From assembly GCA_964016885.1 (NCBI GenBank), contig OZ024740.1:333436001-333500000 (forward strand): a stretch of 64,000 bases of DNA, in the 5' to 3' direction. Origin of the DNA: Eledone cirrhosa (taxonomy: Eukaryota). The translations under genes were made by a program, and so were the position numbers. Below, piece after piece: positions 3,199 through 62,060 of the stretch (within the stretch, counting starts at the first letter, position 1; each line of letters opens with the position of its first letter). A model generated the notes under the pieces. It made no database searches and was not told the DNA's origin. It saw only the letters and a list, made by a program, of their open reading frames with translations.

Positions 3199-5466
3199 TT
3201 AAACCATATTTAATGCTGGTCTATATTTTTGAATAAACATATTTCCCTTATTTATTCGTATTTGTTCTGTTGTATTGTTAGCGCAAAGGTAAAATGGGAA
3301 GACTTGGAATTTGGGTCTCTTATTACTTGCGCATATGTCTAGATGTGCGATTAGTGGTATCTGTTTCGTGGTTGGATCTCGTAGTTGTTGGCGATGAACT
3401 GTCATTCTGTTTCTGAGTGTGAGTTTAGTTTGTCCTATATAATCTTCATTGCATCCTTTACATTTAATTGCATAAAGAAGATTTTTTGATGAGCAAGTGA
3501 AGTGGTTTTTTACAGCAAAATGTTGTCCTGATTTAAATGTATACGTGTTGCCTTCAATGAGGTGAGTGCAGGTTCCACAATTTGAGCGACCACATTTTAT
3601 GACAGTTGATTGTGGGTTTGTGGTAGGTAATTTGGCATTGGTGAGTAATGTTTTCACTGATTTCGGTTGTCTTTTGCTCTTGATTATTTTGTGTGTTTCA
3701 AGGGCTTTTTTCATTATTGGGTCTTGTTTTAGTAGTGGAATGTTCTTGTGAATAGTGTTGAAAGCTTCCGCATTTCTTGGGTTTTGTGTTGAGATATATG
3801 ATAGAACATTGGACGTACCTTGAATTTGTTTCTGTTTTCGTAATTCATCAATGCCTATTGCTTTAGCCCTTTCTATTCCATTATTTATTAGTAATGGTGG
3901 GTACTCTCTTTCGAGTAGAATTTCCTTTAATTCTTGAAGTCTTTTATTTCGCGTTTCATAATTGGAGACAATTGTGCAAATTCTTCTTGCTAGGTTAAAA
4001 GGAATGTTTGTCTTCGTGTGCTTTGGATGGTTGGACGTGAATAGCAGGTATTGTTTGGAATCTGTTGGTTTGTAGTGTATGTCAGTTTCAATATTTTTAG
4101 TCTTTTTTACAGATTAAGATATCCAGAAATGGGAATTGATCTTGGCTGTATTCCATTGTGAATTGGATGTGGTTATTGATGCCGTTTATTAAGCTTTTTA
4201 AATCCTTCAGTTGGTCGAGTGTGTGGGACCAAAGAATGAGACGATCATCCAAGTAGCGTTTCCAATTCTCTGCTAAATATTTGTGGAAGTTTAATCCGTA
4301 TTTTGATTTGGACTGTTCATATATCTTGACTTCTATGTATGCCATGACTAAGTTGGCATAAGTTGGTGCGGCTTGTGTACCCATCGCAGTCCGAGATATT
4401 TGCTTGTATGTACTGCCATCGAAATCAAAAAAGTTGTTCTGTAAGATGAATTTTAATCCCTCGGTGATAAAGCTTTTTTCTATTCTGCCAGGTATCTCAT
4501 TGGGATATTTCTCTAGCCAGAATCCTATTGCTTCCAGTCCGTATTGGTTTGGGATCGTTGTGTAGAGATTCACTACATCGAAAGACACAATAATAGTGTC
4601 GTTGTTGACATATTTTCTTTTGAGGGGGGTGGGGGTTAAGAGGTCGAGATCGTCTCTTACAAGGCTTGGTATGTGTTTGAGAAGTATGTCTATAAATTTG
4701 CTCAGTCTGTGGGTTTCACATTGTTGGCCCGCTAGAATTCGTCTTAATTTAAGGTCCGTGGAGTATTGTGTGTTCACGCAGGTTGAGGTGTGTTGTTTAC
4801 ATGCATCGTTAATTATTTTACACTTGTGGATCTTCGGAAGTCCGTAAAGGTTGCTGGTTTTGTATTCAAAATGTGTTAAATAATCGCGTTCCTTTTTAGT
4901 TAGGTCTTCTGGTATCGACAAATCAGTGTGTTTAATCTGGTCATTGTTTTTGATTGCTGGTAGTTTTTCACTGTTTCATAGTAATTAGTATTTTTTAAGA
5001 GAGAGAACATAGCATTTTTATATTTTTCAGCATCCATAATGACAACAGTACTTCCCGTGTCCGCTTCCTTAATTATAATGTCCGTAGTGTTTTTTAGTTC
5101 ATGGATAATCTCCCATTCCCTTCGACTCGTGTTGGGTTTGGGTTTTGGTTGCGGCAGTTCATGGTATGGGAAAGTAGCTATATGGTCACAAAATTTGTCC
5201 AGAACTCTGTTTCTACCTTTTGTTGGGTTGTAGCTGCTTTTATTCCGTGCAATTGATTCGTCGTTATTGTCCTTGTCAAAGAATTCCTCTGTGAGACGTA
5301 ATTTTCTACAGAAGTGTGAGATATCATCATTCATCTCATTGAGGTTAGAGTATTGTGGTGTTGGTGTGAATTTCAGTCCTTTGGAGAGAATTAGTACTTG
5401 TTGGGCTGAGAAGTTTGTATTTGAAAGGATGATTATTTTCGGTTTTTCAAAATCGGTTTGTGCCAC
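3199..5466 (-). pseudogene. PLE RT-GIY-YIG polyprotein broken into several frames
   Basis: Consecutive ORF-track fragments carry RT motifs, then a CxxxxCxxC Zn-finger linker and the GIY-YIG motifs. Confidence 0.92.
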
Positions 5467-6362
5467 CGGGGTCGTGGGTCCTGTAGCCTTGGTCTAAAAA
5501 ATGATTTTCATGGAATGTTTTTTTCAATGGTATTATTATATCTAATGGTATTTCTCCTGTTATTGTGTGGTCTTGTATAGAAGTTTCGGACGTATTGAGG
5601 TTCGGTTTGTTGATAGTCCGGGTTCTAGATTTTGTTCCTTTGTGTGGGTTGGAATCTACGGTTTTGGAACAGGCTCTGTGTGGGCAAGGGTCTACGGTTT
5701 TGGAATAGGTTTTGTGTGGGTTGTGATCTGCGGATCGGATCCTGTCTTGTGTTGGGGGATCTTCGGTTTTGTTAGTAGGGTCATAGATTGGTCTATGGGT
5801 TCTGGGATTATATATATATATATACAAACACACAGACACAGACACACACACATATATATATATGTATATATATATATATAAAATTGTAATAAGCGGAGCA
5901 AGCAAGATTCAAACAATTTTTTAAAATAAATTAAAAAATATAATTTAAATATTCACCTATTCCTTTTTCTTTTACCGACAGTTTCACCTCACAAAAGAGT
6001 GAAAATCCTAGGGACTTCCAATGGAAATGTTCGGATCTTCAGAAAGCATTTTCCCTACATAGCACGTACAGTTCCAGGAAGGGCAAAAATATATTGCCAT
6101 CTGCCAGCTACTACAGGATTGAATGAGGCCGTAAACTTGACCTACACAAGAAACCAGCCCTTAGTAGAAGCGGAAGTAAACATAGACATTTTGTATATCC
6201 CCACAGGTACTAAGTACCTTTGGAAATATGTAGGGTGTCTATGGTACAGTGGTTGTTCCATGGTATTAATTTGACATACCATAATTATCAAATTGAGATA
6301 ACCGGAGTAAGCATGTTTCAAACAATTTTTTTATAAATATTGATCTTCTTTATATATATATA

Positions 6363-8610: not shown

Positions 8611-8645
<35 letters not shown>

Positions 8646-8650
<5 letters not shown>

Positions 8651-8805
8651 CGAAGGAAATGTGGTAAGGAACCAGGTGGACCATAACGCACCAAAGTACT
8701 CAATACTTAGGGTAGTAGAGTGGGTAATAGGAACCAGTAAGACCCCGTCCAGAATTAGCCGTCGAAACGGCTTGAGCTCAGCCGTCAGGGTCTTACTGGT
8801 TCCTA
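8646..8805. repeat. Fold-back fragment of the 23.2-23.5k Naiad pLTR
   Basis: 8646-8746 is the reverse complement of 23357-23455; 8747-8803 matches 23317-23375. Confidence 0.85.
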
Positions 8806-8829
8806 TATATATATATATATATATATACA

Positions 8830-19849: not shown

Positions 19850-20985
19850 ACAGAAAAAACAACACAATCGGTACAGTATATGGAAGGTATATATTAGGTT
19901 AATGCTTGATATAGCAGGAAGAGGGTCTTAACGTTTCGGACGCTAGTCCTTCATCAGAGGAAAGAATGAGAAATAAAATAGATTGAGGGGACGGGGGAGA
20001 TGGAATTGGTGAAAATGTCTTTAGATAAAAATAACAGGCCCATTCCTGTTGACATCTCTTGCAAAACTGTTGCAGCTGGCGTTTTGAGTATGATTTGTTT
20101 TTTAGAAAAGTGGATGATGGAGCACGTCTACCTGAAATGGAAAAAAAAACTGTTTTGTAAAAATAGCTATACTTGAGTACGTGCGTAAGCATGTGTTTGT
20201 GTGTGTGTGTGTATGTGTGCGTGTGTGTGTGTTTGTGTTTGTGTGTGTTTATAGGTCTGTACGAAGCTAAGAAGAAATGTGTGTATGTATGTGAGTAAAA
20301 GAGTCTGTGTGTGCATGTAAGTACGAAGCTATGAGCAAAAGTATGTTAATATAATTGTGTGTATCGGCCTGTATTAGTTGTAAGAGCAGCTGCTAATGAT
20401 CAAGAGAAAGCGATAGGAATCTAGGGGTGTGATAATGGACGGGGTATTAGAGAAATTGGGTAGGTGAGTTGAGTTCAAGAGGGGATTAGGTCCCAAGGCG
20501 GTGAATCAGACTTTATTCAGTCCTGGTGCGCGAGGCCTGTGATCTATGATCTAAAAGGACCCCGGGGACTGAAAGATGTAGGGAAGAATGACCAGGAGAA
20601 CAGAAATGACGGGGGACAGGAGTATCCGCACCGAGTCAGATGTCCCTCAAATGTTCGGCAAAATGGTCCGCCATACGGCGTCCCGTTTGTCCGATATATA
20701 AAAACCCGCAAAGGGAACATCGGAAGGCATAGACAACGTGGGTGGATGTGGAGGTGAAGAAATAGCGGAGACGGAAAGACCCGTTAGGGCCTGTAAGAGG
20801 GCTGAGGGTGGAAATAAAGGGACAAGTTTTGCAGCGGGAACGGGAACAGGGATGAGAACCGGGTGCAGTTGTGGGAGAGGATGAAAAGGAACTGCGAACC
20901 AGGAGATCGCGGAGGTTGCGGGTGAGCTCTCAAAAGCAGTAATGGGTGGGTTTGGAAAAAAGCCAGTTTTAAGAAAAGAAAGTAT
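19850..20985 (-). mobile_element. 5'-truncated Neptune/Penelope-type PLE (endonuclease plus 3'UTR)
   Basis: Frameshifted minus translation [72 protein letters not shown]; hammerhead core downstream. Confidence 0.85.
19930..19957 (-). ncRNA. Minimal hammerhead-like motif in PLE 3' end
   Basis: Reverse complement reads CTGATGA-a-GGAC-tagc-GTCC-GA-AACGTT (palindromic stem III); stem I is short. Confidence 0.65.
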
Positions 20986-21570: not shown

Positions 21571-21731
21571 CGTTAACCTAATATATCCCTTCCATATACT
21601 GGACCGATGGTGTTGTTATTTCTGTTTAACTTTTACATACACACACGAATTTATATATATAACGAGGGCAGTGTTCAGAAGTAGCTGTGGAAACGTCTGG
21701 AGCTCAGCTGTCTGGGTCCTGACTCTTTTCC

Positions 21732-21793
<62 letters not shown>

Positions 21794-21803
21794 AACGAGT
21801 AGG

Positions 21804-21899
21804 ACCCCGACGGATGAGCACAAGCCGTTTCGACGGCTAATTCTGGACTAAATGAACATTTTTATCCTGCTATATGAATAGCCGAGCTTCTCAGGGGGT
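21804..21899 (-). ncRNA. Type I hammerhead with extended stem II (inverted copy)
   Basis: Reverse complement of 23265-23361 with a few substitutions in stem III. Confidence 0.65.
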
Positions 21900-23264
21900 A
21901 ATTCCATATATGGTAAAAGTGATTGTAACAAGGATTGGTCAAAAGTCTGTTGTTGAGACACATAATTCTATCATGGCAATTTGTGGAAGTTATGTTCGGA
22001 GGAAACTTTACAAATGTTGTTTTCGACGGACCAACTCCTAAACAAGAAGGACGAACTGGTAACTGCATGCAAACACAGATTGCGTAGGACTGACCTCGCC
22101 CTCAAACCCCATGATGACCCGGGGGGGGGGTAGACAAGGGCTGTAACACCCCACTTGCCGACTTTGTAATGGGTAACCCCTGCTTGCAAAGGTAGACGTA
22201 AGATTTTCTTTTATACCTTTTTATCGCTTCCTCTATATTTCCTTCTTCCCCCCATCCCTTCCTAGTCCTTCCACCCCAGTCCTCTTTCTTTGTCGTCGTC
22301 CTTTTCACGTTCTCGCCCACCCGAGGCAGCCCCTCGGTCTTTTGTAGCCTCAGTACCCCCACCCCTTTCCCCTATTCTATGATAGAATTGGTCGACTCCG
22401 CTTTTTATACCAGATGTGATAGACCCCGGATACTTGCTTTCTTATCCGATGGCTGCCCCTTTTCCGTGCTTTCTACGTTTCTTAGTGGTATCTTTGCTTT
22501 AATTTCTCGTATATCATTATTTTTTTTTTTTAATTAATTATTAAATTGTTCATATACTTCGTACGAGCATTTATGTAGTTTGCACTAGAATTTTTGTATC
22601 GTAGCGGCACCCTTAGAGATAGTATTAGTATTCTTTTTCGGGATTCTGATTTATTATTTCGTATTAGTTTATTTTTTGCACTGGGTTGTTGCTGGCCTTG
22701 TGCCTAGGGTAGAAACAATTATTTCATATTGGTCTCGGGACTCTGAATTATTATTTCGTGGTATTTTCTTTAGTCTTTTGGCCCCCCCACTTGTTGACTC
22801 GTCACCGTAATATATACTCGGTTGATTACTACTACCTCTTAAAAGGGTCTCATTATAATTCCGTTTTACCTAGTAAACTTTTCTATAGTCTAGCAGTACC
22901 AGTGAGGGACTTGATGGCTGTCGTTGGGGAATAGTAACCAGTAATGTTTTTTGTTTTTTTTTTATATTTAATTGTTTTTTTTTTTTATTCTCGGTATTCT
23001 TCTATATTTTTACCCCATATTGTTTTACTTTTTGTTTCGACTTCCTCCCCATCCCCCTCCCTAGTATACTTCCTTTGCTTCCTGCCCTGCTGTAGTTGGC
23101 ACTATCAACGCACGACGGGGTTTCCTCCACCCCCTCTCCCTCTTTCTTCTACTGGCAGGTTCATCTACCACTTCCTTCCACAAATTGCCATGATAGAATT
23201 ATGTGTCTCAACAACAGACTTTTGACCAATCCTTGTGACAATCACTTTTACCATATATGGAATT

Positions 23265-23361
23265 ACCCCCTGAGAAGCTCGGCTATTCATATAGCAGGAT
23301 AAAAAATGTGCATTTAGTCCAGAATTAGCCGTCGAAACGGCTTGAGCTCAGCCGTCGGGGT
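23265..23361 (+). ncRNA. Type I hammerhead with extended stem II and CUGAGAA core
   Basis: ACCCC / CUGAGAA / 57-nt stem II (ggcuauuc...gaauuagcc) / GAA / ACGGCU-ugagcuc-AGCCGU / C / GGGGU; predicted cleavage after GUC at 23356. Confidence 0.75.
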
Positions 23362-23452
23362 GCTACTCGTTCCTATTACCCACTCTACTACCCTAAGTAT
23401 TGAGTACTTTGGTGCGTTATGGTCCACCTGGTTCCTTACCACATTTCCTTCG

Positions 23453-23900: not shown

Positions 23901-26047
23901 GAAAGTATGAACTTCCGAAAAGCGAAAATGGCGACAATAAATAAAATAAACACAATAATATATTGCAATAATATTTAGAATGTTGATACATTAAGTAACC
24001 TCACTGTATAGAACAATACAGGTTTTTAATTTAAACCTCACTTAAAATACCAAAATAGAATTCGGGCGTTTCAATATAAATTTTCTCCTGAGATACAGAA
24101 AAGGATTGCGAATGGTCTCACACTGAAATCGCAATAACGAACAGTTTTATAATAGTAAATGATTGTGGATATTAAATATCTAATTGCAGTTACAAATCGA
24201 TTCACGGAGAAAGGAACTGGAAATCTTGAATATCGGTTTCTAAATACCAGGAAACTCGATGATATTTTTCTTTAGTATTATTTGAATGCCTTTTTTTCTA
24301 TTTCAAATGTGTAGCAGTATTTGCGGTCTCAGCTGAAAACCGACCGATGTCAACTCTGCTTCTCACGATCGCATGTTCGAGAAAATGAAACGCCCGTCAA
24401 TATCAGCTTGTTCATCCTCCTCCTGATTTGCTGGCCTTGGGCTATTGGACAAATGCGTATGAATATTTTTTCTGGATGTTTCGTGTTCAAATCCAGATGA
24501 AGAGCCAGGCACGTACTCAATTTGTATTCATTGACTATTTTCTTTTAAACATTGCTGATTTTCTTCTTAAAGTAGAGATCATTATATTAATCTATCTTGT
24601 ATTTTTTCTTGTCATTGTTCAAAATACATTTTAAATATCATGGGTGGAAATCACAATTTTTAGAGGAATGTTTTAAGTCCCGAATCAATTTAATGGTTTC
24701 AGTTGAAAATGCGTGATGGTAAGTAGTTTGTGAAGTTATATACTTTATTTCCTAAAATCATTTGTTGGATTTGTATCTCGAGTTGAATCTTCCAGAAAAT
24801 CAATACTTATTGTTTACATTCCATCAATAAAAACACTTCGTTTCTCCAGGCTCGTAGGTATTTTGGAAGTGGTTATTTATCTACTCCCAAACAACAAATC
24901 AGTTCAGCTGAGCCGTTTTGTCGACAAATAATATTCAAAATAAAATATCGTTCTTCAAACCAATCGGGATTTATTCTACAACCAACATTTTTATTGGATA
25001 ATGTCATCTTTGTCATTCCATACATCACGATTCCCTTCTGTTAATTCATTATATCTGAAAAATAAATATTTTAAATGTACATCTCGCTGAAACGTTCTCA
25101 ATTATTTAATATATATTTTCTCTACACTTGCGTTTATACGTGTATAAAAAAATTGCTTCTATTGATGTTTTATTTTATTTTATTATAGTGTGAAAATATT
25201 TATCACATAATTCCCGAATCAATCCCAGTTGTATATTTCATATTCATCAATATTTGTGTTGTTATAAATACGTCTAAGCAAATGCATAGATGTATATCTA
25301 ATATAACTTTCGTGTTTGTGTATTGGGTGTTAATTCAACAAAATATATTCTGCATTTTGATAGCTATTTTCCAGTATAGGCATCGTGCACTTTTTACTTT
25401 CATATTTAACCCTTCTAAATTCACCGTTATTGAGTTGATGGGGGGTTGGGTTTAATCTACATACGTATTATACCCTAAAGAGAAATAACAGTTCACATTA
25501 AATTGTAATCTAACGCAATCGATTTAAAAGAAGCTACGAAGCGTGAACAACTTTAGGAATACAATGTGAGATATTAGCTGAATGTATGCATATCATATTG
25601 AACTATTTACATGTTCTTTTCCAATGTGTATCAGCAAATATTCAAATATATACAATATTTATAACCAGGAATATTTGTTGAGGCACATTATATTTATATA
25701 TCAAAGAAATACTAAAATGTTTACACACTTTTCCTTTCAATTGATCTTTTAAATTTTATATTTAGAAAGCTCAGTTTTGATTACAGGGAATGGAATCGCT
25801 TCCCTTAAAACAAGTGTATTATTCGTTTGAAAAAACATGGTATGTAAAATGCGTGTTTATTTTGTAACGTATAACATAAAATGACTATGGCGTTATCCCG
25901 ACGTTTAGGCTCATCCATAGTCTTTCAATAAAATGTGTATTCTAGGTTAAAAATGATCTTTCTGATAAGTTCACGTTAAGGGTGAAAGCAACGATTCTTT
26001 GCTTAAACTTTAATCTTTTTTAAATATATATATATATATATATACAT

Positions 26048-27106
26048 ATTGAAAAATCTTGGAAGAGATACCTTGACGACTGTTTCATCATCTGGACAGA
26101 ATCTCTAGATACTCTGGATGAGTTCAATATCCTCCTGAATAACCTACACCCATCTCTCCAATTCACAAAAGAGATGAGTAGGACCAAATTACCATTCCTA
26201 GATATAATGATAATCAAAAACGACACCACCATTACCACGGATATATATTATAAACACACAGACACCCATCAATATCTGAATTTTAAGTCGTGCCATCCAC
26301 CTCATACAAAACGCAACTGCCTAGCCAGAAGAATTTGTACCATTGTAGAAGATACGAATACCAGGTACAAACGCCTAACAGAACTAAGAGAATTTTTGCT
26401 CAAACAAAAATACCCATCTCTACTTATAGAAAATGGCATACAGCGGGCTATAAAAATACCTATACAACAACTTAGAACAACCCAAGGAAGAAGAAACCAA
26501 GAACTGGTCATACCATTTATAATGACACACAACCCATGTCACCAGAATATATTCAACACTGCCAAAGCAAACCTACCGATCATCGCTCAAAGTAATGAAT
26601 TAAAAGGCTTAATCACAGATCGATCTTTGACTCTTAGTAAAAGACAGCCAAAAAATTTGAAGCAATTGCTAACAAAAGCAAAGTTTGACCTTAACAACAA
26701 AGACCAATCATTCACTGTATCTAAATGCAATGATAATCGATGCGGCACATGTCAATCCATACACGCCGGTCAATATATGAAAACAAAAACTGGAAAAATA
26801 TTCCCAAATGCAAATATGAACTGCAAAAGCAGAAATCTAATTTACTGCATTAAATGCCCGAATTGTGAAGAACTGTATGTCGGTCAAACTGGAAATGCAC
26901 TATCGGAACGTGCACGGGTACACCGTCAACAAATCAGAGACCCAAATGTCCGTCAGATACCCCTAAGCGGCCACCTGGCAACATGTGGTCAGGGAATATT
27001 TATAATATTCCCATTCTACAAATTACACAGCCCAAGTGAAATCAAGAGAAAAATCAAAGAAAAGAATTTTATTGATAAATTCAAACCCAAGCTAAATGAA
27101 CAATAA
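26048..27106 (+). CDS. Open but 5'-truncated PLE RT/thumb plus GIY-YIG endonuclease frame
   Basis: The frame upstream of ATG 26174 reads IEKSWKRYLDDCFIIW, then LPFLD, YLNFKSCHPPHTK, CNDNRCGTC, NCKSRNLIYCIKCPNC and YVGQT. Confidence 0.9.
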   Translation: MEKSWKRYLDDCFIIWTESLDTLDEFNILLNNLHPSLQFTKEMSRTKLPFLDIMIIKNDTTITTDIYYKHTDTHQYLNFKSCHPPHTKRNCLARRICTIVEDTNTRYKRLTELREFLLKQKYPSLLIENGIQRAIKIPIQQLRTTQGRRNQELVIPFIMTHNPCHQNIFNTAKANLPIIAQSNELKGLITDRSLTLSKRQPKNLKQLLTKAKFDLNNKDQSFTVSKCNDNRCGTCQSIHAGQYMKTKTGKIFPNANMNCKSRNLIYCIKCPNCEELYVGQTGNALSERARVHRQQIRDPNVRQIPLSGHLATCGQGIFIIFPFYKLHSPSEIKRKIKEKNFIDKFKPKLNEQ

Positions 27107-27729: not shown

Positions 27730-28090
27730 GATATTAAATAAATGGAAACTATATTTATAAAACCATATTTATTTCATTATATATATTTCAGGGATATCAT
27801 ATTAAAAATATGGTATGCCTTCATCAGACAAAATACAATATAAACAGTCTTATAAATAGATAGATTTGACATACCTTACACTTCAACTTCCATTTAAAAA
27901 GTTGATTTGGTAGTTGATTTTTAATATGATATCCCTGAAATATATATAATGAAATAAATATGGTTTTATAAATATAGTTTCCATTTATTTAATATCGTAA
28001 ATATACTCCAAATAATTGTTGAGTTCTTTTATATCAGTTATAAATATTTACTCGTTGTAACACAACAATTTAAATAAAACTTTGCATATA
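27727..28090. repeat. Fold-back pLTR-like repeat (same family as 39.0-39.46k)
   Basis: 27727-27810 is inverted to 27918-27998; hammerhead-like motif on the minus strand at 27777-27831. Confidence 0.75.
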
Positions 28091-33452: not shown

Positions 33453-33953
33453 TTATTCAGTGATTTTTTTACATACTTGACTTCCTTTTCAACACAAGAG
33501 ACATATAGAAACATATGTATATATTGACCCACAGTGGGTTGACATACATTATAATAATATAGCATGACAATTTACATACAAAGATTACAGTCATATTAAA
33601 GGACAAAATTAAAGTTAAAATTAAAAGTAAAATTAAAATTAAAATAAAATATTGGCAGTTTATGAAGATAAAGCAAGAGGAAAGTTTGGAGTAGCCAGTG
33701 TATGCAGCAGTCACACGTGAGGCATGCACGCGTGTCCTATTTATACAAGATTATAGTGCGGCAGATTGTTACATGTAAAACAAGCAGTCAAAGCAGGCAA
33801 TCAAGAGCATCATGGGGGCTGTACTGGTAAAGCATTTTTCACACTCACCTGTACAATATAGAAGCCCGTGTGTAGAGAAACACCAAAAATATCAAAAATA
33901 TTACAAATGAGAAGCAAAAGAGCACCACTGTCCTCGCACACACCACCACTCTG

Positions 33954-35441
33954 ATGATATTGGCCACCAACCGCGATGATGCACTTCTACTTATAGATTA
34001 TAAAAAATTCAATATAGAAAGAACTAGAAAACTATCGCACAAGACATTCAAAAACTATAACCTTAGTATTTCCATGGACAAAAACACTAAAAACGTTAAC
34101 TTCCTGGACGCCACCCTCTACCTAGATTCAAAGATGTATGCACCTTTCCACAAACCTAATGAAAAACTCATTTACGTAGATACCAAGTCTAACCACCCTA
34201 GATCTATATTAAACTCTATCTCTAAGGGAGTATCTAATAGAATCTCTAATCTATCCTATGACGTAAACATATTTAGCAAAAACTCGCAATATTATAATCA
34301 GGCATTAGCCAGATCAGGCCATAATATAGAGATCGAGTTCCTACCTACAAAAACACATAGCTACAACATTATTTCACACAACATGTCCATGAGGAAATTT
34401 AGTAATAGGAATAGCAACCACCTACACACTAATACGGAGGATGCCAACAAAAGTAACCCACACCACAGAAATTATCATAGTACCATAAAAGGAAACAACT
34501 CACCATACATAAAAAACAAAAATAGAAGAAATAATACATTTTTCAACCCTCCTTTCAATCTAAACGTCTCTACCAACCTACCTAGGGCTTTCTTCTCACT
34601 ACTAGATAAACACTTCCCATCCGGCCACAAGTACCATAGCATTTTAAACAAAAACACTATTAAAATCTCCTACTCTACTACGCCTAACATAGCATACCAC
34701 ATAGCTCGTAGCAATAAAAGAAAAAATAATTCTTACTTCCAACAAACTAAATCACAACAGACGATAAACATTCAAAATAACATTATAGCATCTAACCCTA
34801 ATATCAATAGAAATAATAGTAATAGCACACGTGTAAACAATAACGCTGGGAACGATAACCCTATAGCTACTATCCAGACTTCTACACAACATAATAACCG
34901 GCAGACTAACACCCAAAATAATTGTAACTGTAGATCAAATAGAACCTGCCCTTTAGATAAAAAATGCTTAATCAAGGATAGCATATACTCATGCACAGTC
35001 ACAACTAGCAACTCTTTTGAAACCTATATAGGCTCTACTTCAAACTGCTTCAAAACCAGATACAATTCGCACCTCCACTCTTTCAAAAAACACAGTCTAG
35101 CCAACTCCACTTCACTATCTAGCTACATATACTATCTAAAAACTAAAATTAAACCATATACATTTAAATGGGAAGTCATAGGTAACGCGACATCGTACAA
35201 ACCACCTAATAAATTGTGTAACCTCTGTCTACTAGAGACCCATTCTATCATCTTCTCAAACCATAACCTCCTTAATAAAAAATCAGAGTGTTCTCGTCTT
35301 GCCAACACCGCTTCCGACACTCCTTCCAAAACTTTAAACCCAATATATAACAATGTCAAACTTGAACCCGTCACCACCTCTAGCAACAAACATCAGGAGC
35401 ACACCTTACACCTCATCTCCACACCCATTAATCCACTTTAG
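33954..35441 (+). CDS. Truncated Naiad-type RT (from the DD motif) plus GIY-YIG endonuclease
   Basis: RDDAL, VNFLDATL, PFHKPN..YV..SNHP, FFNPPFN, KISYSTTPN, CNCRSNRTCPLDKKCL, IYSC..YIGST, CNLCLLE and LLNKKSE; probably frameshifted at the extreme C-terminus. Confidence 0.9.
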   Translation: MILATNRDDALLLIDYKKFNIERTRKLSHKTFKNYNLSISMDKNTKNVNFLDATLYLDSKMYAPFHKPNEKLIYVDTKSNHPRSILNSISKGVSNRISNLSYDVNIFSKNSQYYNQALARSGHNIEIEFLPTKTHSYNIISHNMSMRKFSNRNSNHLHTNTEDANKSNPHHRNYHSTIKGNNSPYIKNKNRRNNTFFNPPFNLNVSTNLPRAFFSLLDKHFPSGHKYHSILNKNTIKISYSTTPNIAYHIARSNKRKNNSYFQQTKSQQTINIQNNIIASNPNINRNNSNSTRVNNNAGNDNPIATIQTSTQHNNRQTNTQNNCNCRSNRTCPLDKKCLIKDSIYSCTVTTSNSFETYIGSTSNCFKTRYNSHLHSFKKHSLANSTSLSSYIYYLKTKIKPYTFKWEVIGNATSYKPPNKLCNLCLLETHSIIFSNHNLLNKKSECSRLANTASDTPSKTLNPIYNNVKLEPVTTSSNKHQEHTLHLISTPINPL

Positions 35442-36874
35442 CGCAAATAGTGACATCCTCCTAGTACCTTTTACCCTAGAGATATCCCCATGTACTTCTA
35501 CTTTTGGTATATTGGCCTTCAATTACTTAGACTACATTACACCAATATATAATTAATGTAAACTTTAAGCACGGAATTGGTTGTACTAACATCGTCCAGT
35601 GTATGGAGTGCCATCATTGGATAAATGAAAGATTAAGTAATTAATGTATTAACATAAAAGAGCTATATAATCTATATGCTGAGTGCAATGAATTATGTAC
35701 AGGTGATGTATGAGTTATAAATACATGTATGACTTGATGGTCAGATTAGTGTCTTTGTAAGTGAGAATTGATCTCTGGACTACCCTAGTGATATTTAACT
35801 TTGCCATGCAATCAGACATGCAATGCCCCAGAGCTTACCAGGAGTCATATATAGAAGTGATTCTAATAAGACCCTGCCAGGTTCTGCGGGTGGACTACAC
35901 TTACAAAGATCATTGATTTGGAAATCTGACACTTCATGTAGAATATTCGGTTGTGGCACTCTATGATAGAAGGTAATCATCCTAATATGAACACCTTTAG
36001 TACTTCTTGATAGACTACACTGTAATTTGTAGATAAGATACTTAAATTTAGAAATTGTTTATAACCTTATATGATAGGGACTCATTTGAGACACCATTAA
36101 TGTACTTTAGGATAATAAATTTAGCTATAGAAATCAACTAGTTACCTCCCCTTACGCATTAACTCCCCTTAATCACACACACACTTCCGGAATATAATAC
36201 GATGTCAACTCTCACAACAAAAACAACCTGCTATATAGAATCGAATTAGAGAACGACAAGCATGATGTTCTAACATGGTTCAACAGGCATCCAATGTTGA
36301 ATTATCGTGCATTGTGTGATGGACATGTAGTCTATAAATTGCGTTTCCTGGATTGTGAGAGTGGTGGTGTGTGCGAGGACAGTGGGGCTGTTTTGCTTCT
36401 CATTTGTAATATTTTTGATATTTTTGGTGTTTCTCTACACACGGGCTTCTATATCGTACAGGTGTGTGTGAAAAATGCTTTACCAGTACAGCCCCCATGA
36501 TGCTCTTGATTGCCTGCTTTGACTGCTTGTTTTACATGTAACAATCTGCCGCACTATAATCTTGTATAAATAGGACACGCGTGCATGCCTCACGTGTGAC
36601 TGCTGCATACACTGGCTACTCCAAACTTTCCTCTTACTTTATCTTCATAAACTGCCAAGGTTTTATTTTAATTTTAATTTTAATTTTAATTTTAATTTTA
36701 ATTTTAATTTTAACTTTAATTTTGTCCTTTAATATGACTGTAATCTTTGTATGTAAATTCCCATGCTCTATTAGTATAATGAATGTCAACCCACTGTGGG
36801 TCAATATATACATATGTTTCTATATGTCTCTTGTGTTGAAAAGGAGGTCAAGTATGTAAAAAATCACTGAATAA

Positions 36875-37658: not shown

Positions 37659-39004
37659 GATTAAAATACTTGAGTGCGTTGGAGTTATAGAAAATCTGAA
37701 ATATTTTCGTCCTGTCCGCATGCAATTTCTAAGTCCTTCTTCTATTATAGACCTAAAAACTCTGGTAGTTTAAACCGCATCCATTAGCTGCTATATTTCC
37801 TTATCTCTTTGGTTTTAGTTCATTATTATTACCATTATCAGTTTTCTACGGTTTTTTTGTTTTTAGTTTTCATAGTCTTTTTAGCTATCTTACCCTATCT
37901 ATCATCTTAACCATTATTACATTTTTGCTCACCATTGTCGCCTTATAAGTTTCTATCTTTATTTTCATCCCTGGTTTGAGGGTATCTTATTGAATAGTTT
38001 AATTTTAGTCTCCTACATCTAAGGCTAATGAACCTCGTCCTTTCTACACTTAATATTCGCCTTATTGATTATATATAAATTTTTACTTTTATGCTCCTTC
38101 CTACCGTCCATAGTCTCACTTCTTTCTGTTCCCATTGGTCTACCATAGTTTTATTTAGAGTTTTTTTTCTTTGGTAACGTTATTCGTCGGAACGGATCGT
38201 AATATATCCTGATAGATCTTTTAGCTTTTTTATTGAAATATCTTGATTTTATTCGACTTTGATGACTTGGGTTCTGTTCCGTGTGAAGTGACCCATGATG
38301 TCTTTTAAACAATTTTAGTATTAATTAATTTAATAAGGTTTTCAATTCAATTCTTTGATTTAGAATAGTAATATTATCTATATTTAACTAATGACTTGTA
38401 ACGCCTACGTGTCTGTGCTTGTTTTTGTTTTTGTTCTTCATTTTTATTTTATTTATTTTTTTACTACCACATGCTGTCTGTTTTCCTATCATCTGTTATT
38501 GTCTCCGGATATGTCTCCTTGTATTCATCGCGTAAATATGTCTTAAGCATTTTCCATTGATTCTGTGTGTCTGCCATTGTAATATTAACATGTCATATTA
38601 TTTTTATGTAATTGAATTATAAATATATGTCCGATATTGAGGTACTGTTTTGTAATATTTTATGAATTTGAACTGCCTATACCTCTGTATATTTATTGTC
38701 AATATTATATATATTTATATATATTTGTTCACCATACTTTATTTTTATTTGATATTTTTTCTTACCCTGTGAAAAACTTTATATACAATTTGTTGACCTT
38801 AAATGATACGTATGATGTAGTTTTATATATTTTTTAATGTCAGTATATTATTCTATTTTTTTGGTATTGTTTATGCAGACCGTCAGTGTGGTTATTCTAT
38901 TATAATGATTATTATATTATAACGTGTATATTTATATTTAAATATTTAAATAAGTGTTAGTATGTGTTTGTGTAAATGTGTATATATATATGGTATATAT
39001 ATAT

Positions 39005-39460
39005 ATATACAATATTAATAAATGGAAACTATATTTATAAAGCCATATTTATTTCATTATACATATTTCAGGGATACCAAATTAAATTATGGTATGCCTT
39101 CATCAGACAAAATACAATATATAACAGTTTTACAAATAAGCTTTGACGTACCCTATTAAAATGCAACCATTGTTTTTGGAAGCCATCCGGTTTCCAAAAA
39201 CAATGGTTGCATTTTAATAGGGTACGTCAAAGCTTATTTGTAAAACTGTTATATATTGTATTTTGTCTGATGAAGGCATACCATAATTTAATTTGGTATC
39301 CCTGAAATATGTATAATGAAATAAATATGGTTTTATAAATATAGTTTCCATTTATTAATATCGTATATCTACTCCAAATACTTGTCGAGTGCTTTATATC
39401 AGTTATACAAATATTTACTTGTTGTATCCCAACAATTTTCAATAGAACTTTTGCATATAT
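39005..39460. repeat. Near-perfect 360-bp palindrome of a hammerhead-bearing pLTR
   Basis: 39005-39181 is the reverse complement of 39192-39368. The CTGATGA-agg.atacca..tggtat.cct-GAAA motif lies at 39263-39315 (+) and 39057-39110 (-). Confidence 0.85.
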
Positions 39461-52679: not shown

Positions 52680-52871
52680 TACATCTACCAAAAGTTTACG
52701 GTAGTGTCCAATCCGTATGAAGAACTCAATGTAATCCGGATATCATGAAAAGAAGAGATGCATTCAAAAACTACTTTCGGTGAAAAATAAACGGAAAACA
52801 GAGTCAAGATAAATTATAAAAAAAATAATGAATAAACAAAGAAACAGTTCCTTATATTAAACAAAAAATGT

Positions 52872-53010
52872 TCATTATTTTACGATCGTTTCTAGGACAT
52901 ATATGTGTTAGAATTGGTATGCATATTCTATAGATCTATGTACAATATTATGCAAACTATCAGAGGGAATATACATACCTTCACATATATATGCTGTCTT
53001 CAGAAATAAT
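52872..53010 (-). ncRNA. Type I hammerhead with about 104-nt stem II
   Basis: Reverse complement of 57148-57288. Confidence 0.78.
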
Positions 53011-54039
53011 TATGCTTGTTTATTGATAAGAACAAAGATTCAATACAACAGATCTGTTAGGGAACAGGTTTTGAATAGACAAATGAAATAGAGAATGAAA
53101 TATATAAAAATCTATCAAGAAATATAGTTAGATGTGTGTATATGTATGTAAATACGCTCACAGATGTGCATATATGTGTATGCTCATATGTATACGTATA
53201 GTGAAAAAGTGTGTGTAAATCTAAAATTTAGGGCCAATGTATCTGTATGTCTGTAATCTACAGACAGAATAGATACATCATAAGTATATGAATATGAAGG
53301 CGCGCGCATAAAAACGCCTACACACACGTACACTTAGATGCGGAAGTAAAAGAGGTAAGGGAGTGTAATAATTAAAGGAAAGTATCAATCTCGATATATT
53401 TATAAAAATGTAACAATAAATTAGAAAGAAAAAATTTTAGAAAGAAAAAAAAAAAAAAACTAAAGAAAAGACGACAAAAAAAAACGGGGGTACATACATA
53501 CATTGACACGCATGTCTCACAAAAGAAACGCAAAAATATATATGCTTATATACACACGCACACTTACACATCCATACGTTTGATACGTACATACACATAC
53601 ACACACACACATACTTACACTCACGCATATTGACCTGTTTGCATGCACACGCATAAAAATAAGTAAATCATATACCCATACATATATATATACCTAAATA
53701 TATATACATACATACAATGTACATATACAACCACACACACACACACACAGACACACATATATATATAGACATACACACACATATACACAGTCACACACAT
53801 ATACACATATATACACATATATACATATATCTACATATACATATATATATATATATACATATGCATTTTTACACTCTCATACATACACACATACATACAT
53901 ACACACTTATATATACATATACACATCCACGCTTACATATACATATAATTATTGGGGGGGGGGGATTAAATTTATTAGTGGGAAATAGTAAATATATAGG
54001 TTACAAGGAACATAGAGTCATAACCTGAAGTTAAAGCTA

Positions 54040-54990
54040 TATATGTGTTTACTTAATGGTATCAGTTTTAGGAAATGGTATTTGTAAGAAGGAAAGCCAA
54101 ATTATGTAGTTCAACATTAGTAGAATATTAATTATAGGTCAACTAAAATAAAAATAGTTTATATATTAATTTCTAAGGTGTATACTAATTAGGTTTATAA
54201 TATATAAAGCGGAATTATGTAGTTCAACAGTAGTAGAATATTAATTATAGTTTAACTAAATTAAAAATAATTACATATGTTTACTTGATGGTATCAGTTT
54301 TAGGAAATGATATTTGTAAGAGGGAAAGCCAAATTATGTAGTTCATTGGTAGTAGAATATTAATTATAGGTTAACTAAATTAAAAATAGTTAATATATTA
54401 ATTTCTATAGTGTATATTAATTAGATTTATAATATTTAAAGCAGAATTTTGTATTTTATCTGTAGTAGAATTTCAATTATAGGTTAACTAAATTAAAATT
54501 AATCTATATATTAATTTCTAAAGTGTATATTAATTAGATTTATATTTAAATGTTTTTCTCAGTTTATGATTACACGATATTTTGTATTTCATCTGTAGTA
54601 GAATTTTAATTATAAGTTAACTAAATTAAAATTATAGGTTAACTAAATTAAAATTAATCTATATATTAATTTCTAAATTGTATATTAATTAGGTTTATAA
54701 TATTTAAAAGTTTTTCTCCGTTTATGATTACACGATATTTTGTTGTATTTCATCTGTAGTAGAATTTTAACAATAGGTTAACTAAATTAAAATTAATCTA
54801 TATATTAATTTCTAAAGTGTATATTAATTACACGATATTTTGTATTTCATCTGTAGTAGAATTTTAAATATAGGTCAACTAAATTAAAATTATAGGTTAA
54901 CTACATTAAAATTAATTTATATATTAATTTCTAAAATGTATATTAATTAGGTTTATAATATTTAAATGTTTTTCTCAGTTTATGATTACA
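54040..54990. repeat. Minisatellite array derived from the Naiad ORF end and 3'UTR
   Basis: Repeated units ggttaactaaattaaaatt, gtatattaattaggtttataatattt and tttatgattacacgatatt. Confidence 0.85.
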
Positions 54991-56559
54991 CGATATTATT
55001 AATTCCAGTCGCTTATTTAATAGGATATCCTTAGATTTCATTATTTCGAAAAGTTCTTGGGAACACAATCTACATTCATTTCTACTATTTTGATAAGGGG
55101 TGGCTCTTTTGAGCACACTCCAGGTCATGTCATATTCTATATTCCTCTTTCTATAACTATTAATTTTTTCTGCTAGAGATGTTGTATTAGCTAATGCGGC
55201 ATTTTTAAAACTATGTTTGTGGGTATTAAATCTTGCCTTAAAATTGTTAGAAGTAGCTCCTATATATGAACAAATAGAGTCCTTAGTGTTAACTTTACAT
55301 TTATATACTATGTTATTAACAAGGCAATTTCCTTTTAATGGGCAGTTTGCCTTGTTTCTACAGTTACAACTTTTCGTTAATCCTGTATTTGAGGAGATAT
55401 TATGGCTAGTTTGATGTACTGGTGGTATACTTATGGGTTTTTTTCATGTATATGCATTATAGGCACTTATATTTTGTTTTATGTTTTTGGTTGTTGAGTA
55501 TGAGAATTTAACTGTTGATCTATTTAAGATTTGATGGTATTTCTGGTTTGGCGGGAAGTTTTTCTCTAGGATATTAAAGAATTTTTTAGGTATATTATCC
55601 TTAACCTGTAAATTAAAAGGAGCATTATACCAAGTAACACGTTTATTACGGTTTCTATGTTGTTTATTGTTTTTATAGGATGCATCCTGATGTTTACTAG
55701 GAGAATTATTGTTAATGACCTCTCCACACACATTTTTAGTTAGATTTATTGATTTAGGTGTTTTAGCTTGTTTATTAGGAGTTTTATTATTAACATTTAT
55801 TAGAGTTGTAGGATGAGTAGTTTTTTGAGAGTTACTATACTGTATATTAGAGGAGTTAGAGAAATTTGGTTTTATGTTGGTATTTTGGGGTATAGTGTGA
55901 GTGGCATTTAGGTGTGTACGTTTCATTTGGTGTTTGTTGGTAATATTAGGTTGTATGTTTGTAGTGTTATTGGTAGAAGGTATATATTCCAATCTATTTT
56001 TGTGGCCACTTCTAGCTAGAGCTTCGTTATAAAAGGTCGCATTTTTATCAAATACATCTTGGTTAGACGAAAGGTTAGAAATTCTAAGTGATATATTATA
56101 TGCAAGGTTTTTAAGGATAGATTTAGGGTGATTAGATTGTGAGTGTATGTAGTGTAAATTTTGGTTGGGTTTATGGTAAGGTTGGTAGATACCCGTAGCT
56201 AAGTCTAATGTTATATATAGGAAATTAACTACTTTACTTGTGTTTTCAAATGTAATATCTAGACTATAATAGTCTTTAAGGAAAGTTCTAATAAGCTTTT
56301 TGTTTTTCTCTATCTCTGAGAGGCTAAGGTTATTGGAAAGAAGAAGACAGTCGTCACGATATAACCCACCTTTAAGGTGGGGAAAGGAAGCATTTATGTT
56401 AAAAAGAAGAAAGAGGCCCACAAGATCAGTAATTTGGGCAGAATCGCTTGAGCCCATAGTAATATCAAATAGATTACTATATGTGTTTCTGGTCCAGTAT
56501 TCATTCTGAAATTCAATTAGTGTTAGTCTAGCATGTGTAATAATATTAATGTCATCCAA
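54943..56559 (-). pseudogene. Naiad-type RT-GIY-YIG ORF, truncated, one break near 55440
   Basis: FDITMGSSDSAQITDLVG, GGLYRDDCL, YIHSQSNHP, VTWYNAPFN, then CNCRNKANCPLKGNCL, YIGAT, CRLCSQE and LLNKRLELIISCNH. Confidence 0.92.
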
Positions 56560-57147
56560 AGTTAAGTTAGATCTATTAAACGTATGGATGTGTAAGTGTG
56601 CGTGTGTATATAAGCATATATATTTTTGCGTTTCTTTTGTGAGACATGCGTGTCAATGTATGTATGTACCTCCTTTTTTTTTGTCGTCTTTCCTTTAGTT
56701 TTTTTTTTTTTTTTTTTTTCTAAAATTTTTTCTTTCTAATTTATTGTTACAATTTTATAAATATATCGAGATTGATACTTTCCTTTAATTATTACACTCC
56801 CTTACCTCTTTTACTTCCGCATCTAAGTGTACGTGTGTGTAGGCGTGTTTATGCGCGCGCCTTCATATTCATATACTTATGATGTATCTATTCTGTCTGT
56901 AGATTACAGACATACAGATACATTGGCCCTAAATTTTAGATTTACACACACTTTTTCACTATACGTATACATATGAGCATACACATATATGCACATCTGT
57001 GAGCGTATTTACATACATATACACACACCTAACTATATTTCTTGATAGATTTTTATATATTTCATTCTCTATTTCATTTGTCTATTCAAAACCTGTTCCC
57101 TAACAGACCTATTGTATTGAATCTTTGTTCTTATCAATAAACAAGCA

Positions 57148-57288
57148 TCATTATTTCTGAAGACAGCATATATATGTGAAGGTATGTATATTCCCTCTGA
57201 TAGTTTGTATAATATTGTACATAGATCTATAGAATATGCATACCAATTCTAACACATATATGTCCTAGAAACGATCGTAAAATAATGA
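57148..57288 (+). ncRNA. Type I hammerhead with about 104-nt stem II
   Basis: UCAUUAUUU / CUGAAGA / 104-nt hairpin / GAA / ACGAUCGU / A / AAAUAAUGA. Confidence 0.8.
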
Positions 57289-58301
57289 ACTTTTTTTGTT
57301 TAATATAAGGAACTGTTTCTTTGTTTATTCATTATTTTTTTAATAATTTATATATATATATATATATATAATAGAATAATCGAGTATCGGAAAATCAGCT
57401 CACGAATTAACGATAAACAAATCCGATATGAGTGGCAGAGGGCTCAATAATTTAGATAAATCAGAGCTATAACTATCGTTAAAATACCAACACATAAAGA
57501 TTATGCCTAAAATCACCCATGCAGCCGAAAAAGAACGACCAGGAAGATTCGGGTCACTCAAATAAATATCAATAAATCAATAATTTAAATGAATGTAAAA
57601 AAAAATATATATATATAATTCAGAATATGAATAAATGAAGATATTCACATAATCAAAATATATTTTTTATTATATATATATTTGGAAGGTACTGTGCTGA
57701 TTTTTCAGTACGTCCTCCTCAGATAAAATACATGAATTGATGTATGACATACCTCAACGGTCTTGAAAGTTCATTTCCTGTTTTGGCAGTGATTTATTAC
57801 AACAAATCTCAACATTTATGTCCCACAAATAATAACATGATAAACTTAAATTTAAAGAAGAAGAGGATGTGGAGCGAGATATGGGTATATGGAGGGGCTT
57901 AATATGAGGAAATGCAAGAAGAAATAGATACATAAATATTTAAATGAGTAAATAGAAGTATTAGGGAATAAATATATAAAAGGAAAAGGAAGAGAGAGAT
58001 ACTAGAGAGGAAGAAAGAAGAAATAACCACAAAAAAAGAAAGAAAGAAATGGATTGGAAAGGTATACAGACCGTTGTTTTCAAATATTAAGTCAAATTGA
58101 GGCAGCCCATATATATGTATATATATATGTATATATATATGAGGCAACGCATATATATGTATGCGTTATGTCCTTGAGCAAGACACTTTATTTCACGTTG
58201 CTCCTTCTACCTGGAGTTGCGACCGATAGATAGTATTAGCAATTGGAAAGACCAACGGAAACATTGTTTCCTCGGTCCGATTTGACGAAAGTCGATCGTT
58301 C

Positions 58302-58412
<111 letters not shown>

Positions 58413-59644
58413 AATGTGTGTGTGTGTGTGAGAGACTCTGCTAGATACATACTTACGTATGTATGTATATATGTATGTGTGTATATATGTGTGTACGTAC
58501 GCATGTAAATGTGTATATGTGGAAATCAAGAGACGACATTGCGACTCCTTGCGCGAAAATACATCCATTTCATTCGCCACCCAATTTCACGTATATTTCA
58601 AAGGCACAAACTTCTTTTGATTTGCGGACGCAAAGCAACCGCCTTCTGATGAATTTCAAAGTTGTGCCACTTTGTATGTATGATGAATGACAGCTTACGT
58701 CAAAATTTAACGCAATCGTTTGAATACATAACTCTACTCTTTTTCTCAATATAACGTTGTTTAGAGTTCACGAACACGCTGCTTCAACGAAGCCTTTAAA
58801 TTACACATGAATAAACAGATACAGGATTCGACACAGCTCTTACACAATATTACATGTGGCATTTCAAATGTAATTTTAGTGTCAATTTGTTTTTTTTCTA
58901 ACCTTTATATCCGAAGGCTGTGGCATTTGTATTAATATATTTTCTATCCCGTAATATTATTCACATTATATCTGAACACAAAATAAATCTGCCTTTTACG
59001 ACAAGAAGCTAATTTTGTTTGTTTTCAAACATGATAGAAGGGCGCTTCTGTTAGCTATACAAAATCGGTTGGAATATGATATTTAATGAATTATTCATAC
59101 TTATTCATTTTTGGAGAAGAGAATCTGGTATCATTTTTTAAATTAAATTTCATTATTGGGTTATATCTTCTGATTTTCAATATTTTAGAGTATCAATAGA
59201 TTATTATTAGAATCAAAGTATTCATTATAGCTTTTCAACACAAATGTCAAAGTAGCAAATCTAAGTTTATTTCGTTGAAATAAAAATGTTCTGCTCGGAT
59301 TTCAAACACCCAAGTATTTTTCTCCAACACTTTGCATTTAGTCAATATAAAGTGAATTTTGAAGAAGGATATTTCTTTTAATTTGAATGAATATTACAAT
59401 CAACGCCTATTTTGATCCCAGTAATTCAGGAATGTTTCTTTAATTTCATCGATTTTATTGTAGTGTGTAGATCTTTCAAATATAAGAATCACATTTCCAA
59501 ATTTCGTACAAGCATATTTCTTCACAACAATGCTTATGAACAAAAGATCGATCACACATATGCATTATGCATTATACACATACACACGCCTACACACATA
59601 CACACAAACACACAGAGACATACACATACATACATATATATATA

Positions 59645-59859
59645 TAGGAAAAACTATGACCCCGACGGCAGAGCTCAAGCCGTTTCGCTGGCTATTTCTG
59701 GACTAAAAAAATTTTTTTTTTTTTGTCCAGAAATAGCCGTCGAAACGGCTTGAGCTCTGCCGTCGGGGTCATACTTGTTCCTATTACCTACTCTACTACA
59801 CTAAGTATTGAGTAATTTGGTACGTTATGGTCCATCTGGTTCCTTACCACAATTCCTTC

Positions 59860-59865
<6 letters not shown>
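59645..59865. repeat. Fold-back fragment of the 23.2-23.5k pLTR family
   Basis: 59645-59706 is inverted to 59722-59785 and continues into the pLTR tail. Confidence 0.85.
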
Positions 59866-59911
<46 letters not shown>

Positions 59912-61723: not shown

Positions 61724-61762
61724 CGCCCTCTCTCTCTGTATATATATATATATATATATATA

Positions 61763-61885
61763 TAGGAAAAGAAAGAGGACCCCGGGGTGCTGACTCTTTT
61801 CCTATTAACCACTCTACTACTCTAAGTATTGAGTACATTGGTGCTTTAAAGTCCAGCTGGTGTGTTACCGCACCTTTGTTATATA
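61763..61885. repeat. Fold-back fragment of the 23.2-23.5k pLTR family
   Basis: aggaaaagaaagaggacccc|ggggtgctgactcttttcct followed by the pLTR tail. Confidence 0.8.
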
Positions 61886-62060
61886 TGTATATTAGTATAT
61901 ATTTGTTTCTGTATTTGTCTCTGTGTGTATGTATATATATATATATAGTAATAATAATAATAAATTTGAAAACTAAAATCCAAAGAGGGCTCGATAAGGA
62001 TAAATATATATCAAATATATAAGAACCATAGAGCAAATATTTATTAAAATAACAGATTAA

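Follow-up and report, generated by a model that had tools for sequence, protein, structure and literature searches.

Head-to-head junctions of a Penelope-like element in Eledone cirrhosa point to template RNA ends at a predicted hammerhead cleavage site

A short palindrome at 61783/61784 of the window (the whole 64,000-nucleotide stretch of Eledone cirrhosa DNA analysed here) raises the question of why two copies of one element end should be joined head-to-head at the base where a hammerhead ribozyme, predicted elsewhere in the window, would cut its RNA. An earlier note had proposed that the copy was reverse-transcribed from a self-cleaved RNA, the cDNA folding back or switching template at the ribozyme-made 5' end.

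The palindrome and its element family

The palindrome is real: 61762-61783 pairs with 61784-61805 at 18 of 22 positions (mismatches at arm positions 6, 9, 10 and 11), and its junction pattern has 118 matches in the genome (4 among the 100 matches listed being one site on both strands) against 0 for the reversed control. Positions are numbered from the base directly 3' of the hammerhead GUC (GTC in the DNA), +1 being 23357. The right arm aligns with window positions 23356 onward at 82% identity, so both arms begin at the base after GTC (23354-23356), as had been claimed. Because C-1 and G+1 are self-complementary, the reading of the blunt CCCC|GGGG join may shift by one base in either direction, and this copy, taken alone, is ambiguous by one base. 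Loci of the palindrome's own subfamily also carry GTC directly 5' of GGGG (L120).

The whole structure is a 118-bp mini-insertion in (AT)n, composed of an inverted short arm head-to-head with a long arm (Table 1). The left arm is the family's usual inverted short arm, with the terminus TTCCTAT-(AT)n; its end at +22 in this subfamily, which has a 9-nt spacer, equals +20 in the main subfamilies, and it carries three substitutions relative to a perfect sister copy at C19:14344166. We rejected the alternative that it represents stem I's 5' strand after deletion of the core: its sequence is complementary, in reverse, to the 3' strand and terminates in (AT)n as all short arms do. Flanks differed between all 30 blunt-junction loci that were read; all 30 were short-arm/long-arm insertions, and (AT)n adjoined the short arm in every one of these palindromic loci. 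An assembly artefact is unlikely in view of the four mismatches and the many independent sisters; no public contig spans the junction.

Table 1. Coordinates in the window of the palindrome, the predicted hammerhead and related insertions
Feature	Position	Strand	Remarks
(AT)n target, left flank	61740..61761		read from the sequence
Inverted short arm, pLTR +1 to +22	61762..61783	-	stops at internal RT start site
Head-to-head blunt junction	61783..61784		at predicted scissile bond (C17|N1.1)
Long arm, pLTR +1 through the 3' tail to about +96	61784..61879	+	stops at second RT start site
(TA)n target, right flank	61880..61888		read from the sequence
Reference type-I hammerhead of the family (predicted)	23265..23361	+	GTC| at 23356/23357
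Initiator-like T(T/C)AGT in stem II loop	23313..23319	+	A at 23316 (-41), upstream edge of main 5' breakpoint cluster
Longer family copy: end of GIY-YIG ORF, 3' UTR, pLTR to +96	21990..23452	+	inverted short arm at 21789-21989 (21789-23452 in all)
Sister insertion	8623..8806	-	long arm from +1/-1, short arm from -40 (1-nt microhomology)
Sister insertion of the common class	59644..59871	+	both arms end near -40, T-run filler

A 22-base tail anchor has 37,298 matches in the 3.0-Gb genome, corresponding to about 37,300 copies of the family. In a full copy (L282) the order is inverted pLTR, pLTR to +96, a leader of about 95 nt, an ATG near +190, the ORF, a 1.3-kb 3' UTR and pLTR, and a tandem (L419) has a period of 3,568 bp. 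A single open frame of 774 aa (L429) contains RT followed by a C-terminal GIY-YIG (YRDD at 398, VIY/YIG at 641/656), with DKT at 167 in place of DKG, RWR at 87 (a conservative change from RWK), a CxCX5C linker at 622, and CxxC at 720 and CxH at 748 beside conserved E and N; the GxKF/Y motif is absent from this frame. By these motifs the element is assigned to the Hydra clade of C-terminal-endonuclease Penelope-like elements (PLEs). A Neptune/Nematis PLE was rejected, since a CX2-5CxxC linker would be expected and DKT also speaks against Neptune. A non-LTR retrozyme was rejected as well, since it would form head-to-tail monomers, each with a whole hammerhead, whereas the mini-copies are head-to-head and lack the core. 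A Pfam search of the ORF gave no hit; a PDB search gave nothing usable. Part of the members among its unnamed protein-atlas neighbours carry GIY-YIG or RVT_1. Three ORF peptides were not found in the covered part of the Craig et al. 2021 supplement, where long runs are partly incomplete.

As far as the accessible part of Craig et al. 2021 (PMC8557442) describes the Hydra clade, our element resembles it in DKT, the CxCX5C linker, the C-terminal GIY-YIG, CxxC with CxH and the lack of GxKF, and also in its (TA)n target, pLTR hammerhead and partial tandems with an inverted 5'-truncated copy. It differs in having RWR rather than RWK, a unit of 3.57 kb with a 1.3-kb 3' UTR against generally <3 kb, a tail of about 76 nt against 30-40, and a U3-A8 core with a long stem II and a stable stem III. 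Inverted 5'-truncated copies, tails and pLTR hammerheads were already described there, the tail was ascribed to endonuclease resolution and the function of PLE hammerheads was called unclear; that part of the paper makes no mention of a junction class at the cleavage site.

Four further family pieces lie in the window, three of them in Table 1 and one a lone short arm at 21673-21734; all except the last consist of a long arm and a short arm, head-to-head. Other PLE-like ORFs of the window (33605-36705, 52809-57351, 3199-5493 and 26024-27106) are of the Hydra type and of a CX4CxxC-linker type; two of them are flanked by 350-650-bp inverted repeats, and the set is fit for the same junction count as is made below. 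At another locus (L094), a 714-aa open PLE frame of a different type (DKG, C-terminal GIY-YIG) adjoins a family copy.

The predicted hammerhead and the ends of ordinary copies

The hammerhead that the earlier note took as its reference is composed of stem I (ACCCC/GGGGT), the core CTGAGAA, a long stem II, GAAAC and stem III. It serves for the GTC| site, but it belongs to another subfamily than the palindrome and has a C3.A8 mismatch where most family copies have U3-A8. Among 36 cores, chosen mainly by flanking sequence and with some loci repeated, UGA-N-AA is kept in all, N7 being any of the four bases; U3-A8 is found in 22 and C3.A8 in 14. U3-A8 is a known variant of PLE hammerheads (PMC4209133), and those ribozymes share with ours a G10.1-C11.1 pair, a bulge where stem II begins, and opposite-strand motif pairs 100-700 bp apart. 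They have no stable stem III, and dimers were proposed for them, whereas stem III here has 5 bp and a palindromic loop. In 14 copies, 99.3% of the stem cells pair and no compensatory change was found; Rfam gave no match at the gathering score, and the hammerhead fold is not the minimum-energy fold.

Stem III has been precisely lost again and again by slippage between two GCCGTCG repeats (L179, L381, L406 and L409; in some 6 of 70 rows). On the minus strand of the window, at about 19925-19965, there is a second hammerhead-like motif that belongs to a different family, with a canonical CUGAUGA core, a 4-bp stem II and a short palindromic stem III, and GC-rich ORF-like DNA lies upstream of it at 20400-20950. 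At 39002-39371 and at 27827 we observed an inverted repeat of 183 bp, spaced by 4 nt; its arms bear another CUGAUGA hammerhead-like motif, and its axis falls some 80 nt upstream of this core, not at a cleavage site.

The ends of ordinary copies were read in an unbiased sample, the first 100 distinct tail anchors on contig 1, with 69 adjacent short arms. Long arms start at -49 to -30 in 57 of the 100 copies (mode -41/-40) and at -2 to +2 in 6. Short arms start in the same interval in 57/69 cases and end at exactly +20 in 50/69, and in 23 of the 69 pairs the short arm starts upstream of the long arm by more than 3 nt. At five loci (L077, L350, L357, L370 and L371) the inverted arm also reaches +96, so that either start site is usable on either strand.

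The upstream edge of this cluster is the A of T(T/C)AGT, an initiator-like word. Transcription would thus start at -41, inside the ribozyme, at a likely promoter start that splits the hammerhead, and RNA beginning there would lack the hammerhead's 5' half and be unable to cut in cis. An extra G at the -41 ends (13/50, against 6/50 at +1; p = 0.12) does not demonstrate a base derived from a cap. At loci with an ORF leader (the best 30 of 40 scored, four being repeats on one contig), 19 of 30 copies keep the whole uncut hammerhead, one starts at -40 and one at -1/+1. With so few of them starting at the cut, cleavage appears to be a side route; the data suggest that cutting is minor and yields mostly dead 116-135-bp mini-copies, not full-length ones.

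Junctions at the predicted cut

Copies in which a filler separates the two arms define the arm ends exactly. In the whole genome, both arms end at one base with an unrelated 2-10-nt filler between them in 77 cases at +1 (one site included twice), 0 at -1 and 2 at +2. CCCC/GGGG microhomology alone, which had been raised as an explanation of such breakpoints, is ruled out by these filler-proven junctions. Most fillers are A/T or were templated by neighbouring arm sequence. A search for two short arms gave 552 matches, of which the first 100 were examined and five dropped because their left part was no inverted arm. The remaining 95 include 25 double-+1 copies with filler and 13 blunt ones; the 49 filler junctions among them have 98 arm ends, 69 of which fall on +1 and 1 within -1 to -3. 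By scaling, double-+1 copies number about 200-260, which is <1% of the family, against 1-2 expected on a rough estimate if arm ends were independent; the arms are therefore coupled. When breakpoints are set against the GUC site, as had been proposed, a peak at +1 is thus found for the double-arm filler junctions, whereas the main break of the family lies at about -41.

A short arm reaching -36 to -44 marks an uncut template. Where it does so (70 parsed rows among the first 100 listed of 994 matches), the long-arm ends are flat from -24 to +5, and 3 of 37 filler ends are at +1 versus 36 of 49 in the filler junctions above (Fisher p = 7e-10; the gap limits of the two sets differ, 24 and 30 nt). 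Eight ends of this set are at +1: microhomology accompanies five of them and filler the other three, of which one is a mis-parse and two contain rearranged pieces. A mirror search (30 rows of 1,465 matches), which overlaps this set and uses heuristic arm labels, gave 0 of 11 filler ends at +1. These results argue that RT does not stall at +1 on uncut RNA, and together with the filler counts they leave neither microhomology nor stalling as an explanation; the class is accounted for by RNA that physically ends at the predicted scissile bond. Contigs aligned to the pLTR had five opposite-strand joints, 0 at +1, a number too small to use.

The subfamilies contribute unequally to the +1 class. One supplies 25/49 of it versus 6/66 of the background (p = 1e-6), a common U3-A8 subfamily is depleted (3/49 versus about 25 of 66) and the subfamily carrying C3.A8 still supplies 6/49. 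Constrained folding per subfamily, carried out on single, partly mutated copies, gives no account of this bias. The two arms are identical over 7 marker bases in 80 of 95 pairs, which, with the arm coupling, suggests that a single RNA was copied twice; gene conversion from arm to arm may have added to the identity. One +1/+1 palindrome (G000:C14:4934307) pairs arms whose marks assign them to different subfamilies, which suggests occasional use of two RNAs.

The RNA end behind the +1 class was, in our judgement, probably made by the ribozyme. It is improbable, though of the alternatives this one survives best, that G+1 is a minor capped transcription start at which both cDNAs run off, the ribozyme being uninvolved. 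The pair C-1/G+1 would suit a pyrimidine-purine initiator, arm coupling of this kind would be predicted together with the sharp upstream edge, and an extra sense-strand G is present at 6/50 of +1 ends, with further cases among the +1/+1 matches with 2-10-nt filler. However, such a start would have to coincide to the base with the scissile bond, in a family that already has an initiator-like start at -41, and the extra G is expected from stutter in the G4 run and is no commoner than at -41 ends (13/50; p = 0.12).

For the copy at 61783/61784 itself, one can conceive that cDNAs of uncut RNA were resected to C-1 and annealed via the self-complementary CG, a microhomology join to which we give slightly less credit still. 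The one-base ambiguity of the blunt join would accommodate an annealed -1/-1 junction, and annealing joins are common, as 180 symmetric blunt joins at the self-complementary GAGCTC in the genome and 12/95 joins via CGG demonstrate. Yet the same kind of join was found in 0/95 and 0/95 copies at two other 2-nt self-complementary sites, versus 13 at the cleavage site, no -1/-1 junction is filler-proven, and the filler class cannot be accounted for in this way. The proposal that a self-cleaved RNA was the template is supported at the level of the family; the blunt copy on its own is ambiguous.

Fold-back, by which one cDNA would have reached the ribozyme-made 5' end, folded on itself and copied back to +20, is highly improbable. 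The arms do share subfamily marks, as self-copying predicts, but a fold-back requires a loop and should cost one arm its terminal bases, and both arms retain +1; it predicts a short arm contained in the long one, contrary to the 23/69 copies noted above; the +20 end is a fixed site common to long copies; and some palindromes pair arms of two subfamilies (C14:4934307). The sister insertion at 8623-8806 cannot have arisen so. Of the two routes in the earlier note, fold-back is not supported by these observations or by the fillers, and a template jump between two cDNA ends is possible. Least credible of all is that uncut RNA makes RT stall, either at the stem III hairpin's foot or at its folded junction. 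Hairpins are known to pause RT and stem III starts two bases upstream of +1, but a stall should include C-1 or enter the stem (0 junctions at -1/-1), should show a +1 peak with an uncut-template partner arm, which is not seen, and, being stochastic, would leave the arms uncoupled.

A two-cDNA route and its bearing on PLEs

It is quite likely, judging from sequence, that the palindrome arms start at the predicted cut because reverse transcription copied a self-cleaved RNA two times, after which the resulting cDNA ends were joined head-to-head; two separately primed cDNAs are indicated by the fillers and by the short arms that start upstream of their long arms. A read-through RNA with the whole hammerhead would be cut at GUC|, and its 3' fragment would retain both RT start sites, +20 and +96, at which fixed arm ends are seen in the copies. 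The element's protein would nick both strands of the (AT)n target, priming one cDNA per nick, and both cDNAs would run off at +1, often with untemplated A/T added, in keeping with the observed ends and fillers. The two 3' ends may then be joined by a template jump or by host end joining. Acting on RNA from -41, the same route would produce the most frequent type of copy; acting on long read-through RNA, it would yield full-length copies that carry an inverted pLTR. All copy classes are compatible with a pair of cDNAs primed at +96 and +20 from opposite-strand nicks.

In the twin priming of L1, two cDNAs primed on opposite target strands are likewise joined, resulting in a 5' inversion. The arms of L1 cover different parts of the RNA, whereas here both copy the same segment from two fixed start sites, which produces a palindrome.

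The Poseidon element of anole, PAc, offers a biochemical comparison, as far as the covered part of Frangieh et al. 2024 (PMC11167929) goes. Both target strands are nicked and extended in vitro, with two internal RT start sites; cleavage is dispensable in vitro, and no RNA reads begin or end at the cleavage site. Our family resembles PAc in two internal RT start sites bounding the tail, an AT-rich target, the cutting and extension of both strands as proposed here, and a predicted dimer, protein-assisted hammerhead upstream of the start sites. It differs in that its genomic copies record ends at the cut site, with coupled arms, and in the placing of the hammerhead, which is about 190 nt upstream of the ATG instead of over it. 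The side-route role of cutting proposed here is in line with the dispensable cleavage of PAc. A precedent for genomic 5' junctions that mirror a ribozyme cut is R2 with its HDV-like ribozyme, in the available part of Eickbush et al. 2013 (PMC3774820); there the normal template is made by cleavage, whereas in our family cleavage marks a minority class.

In vivo evidence for PLE hammerheads has been called absent (PMC4209133). A literature search that covered few subscription papers found no published report of the +1 junction class or of in vivo PLE hammerhead cleavage, and the accessible parts of 10.64898/2026.07.22.740005, PMC4918200, PMC6431247 and PMC6765202 report no PLE copies ending at the cut. 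The element is thus of a known kind, and the junction class, which was not found described, bears on two questions, the cutting of PLE hammerheads in cells and the origin of the inverted pLTR.

Whether animal PLE hammerheads cut in vivo has been at issue; their in vitro activity is low. Here the assembly provides an internally controlled signal, exact to the base, of cut RNA that serves as a template, and the +1 junctions are likely a genomic record that the predicted hammerhead works in living cells, with one RNA copied twice per insertion. From the arm coupling follows a model, open to testing, of how PLEs come by their characteristic inverted pLTR. Taken in full, a reading that we consider moderately probable, head-to-head PLE junctions would be a single-molecule record of the 5' ends of germ-line template RNA, showing to the single base that a U3-A8 animal PLE hammerhead cuts in vivo, that an intra-ribozyme promoter leaves most templates uncleavable in cis, and that the inverted pLTR arises when one RNA is twin-primed at its two fixed start sites. 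If this is true, the same junction count would measure the ribozyme activity of any PLE family from an assembly alone.
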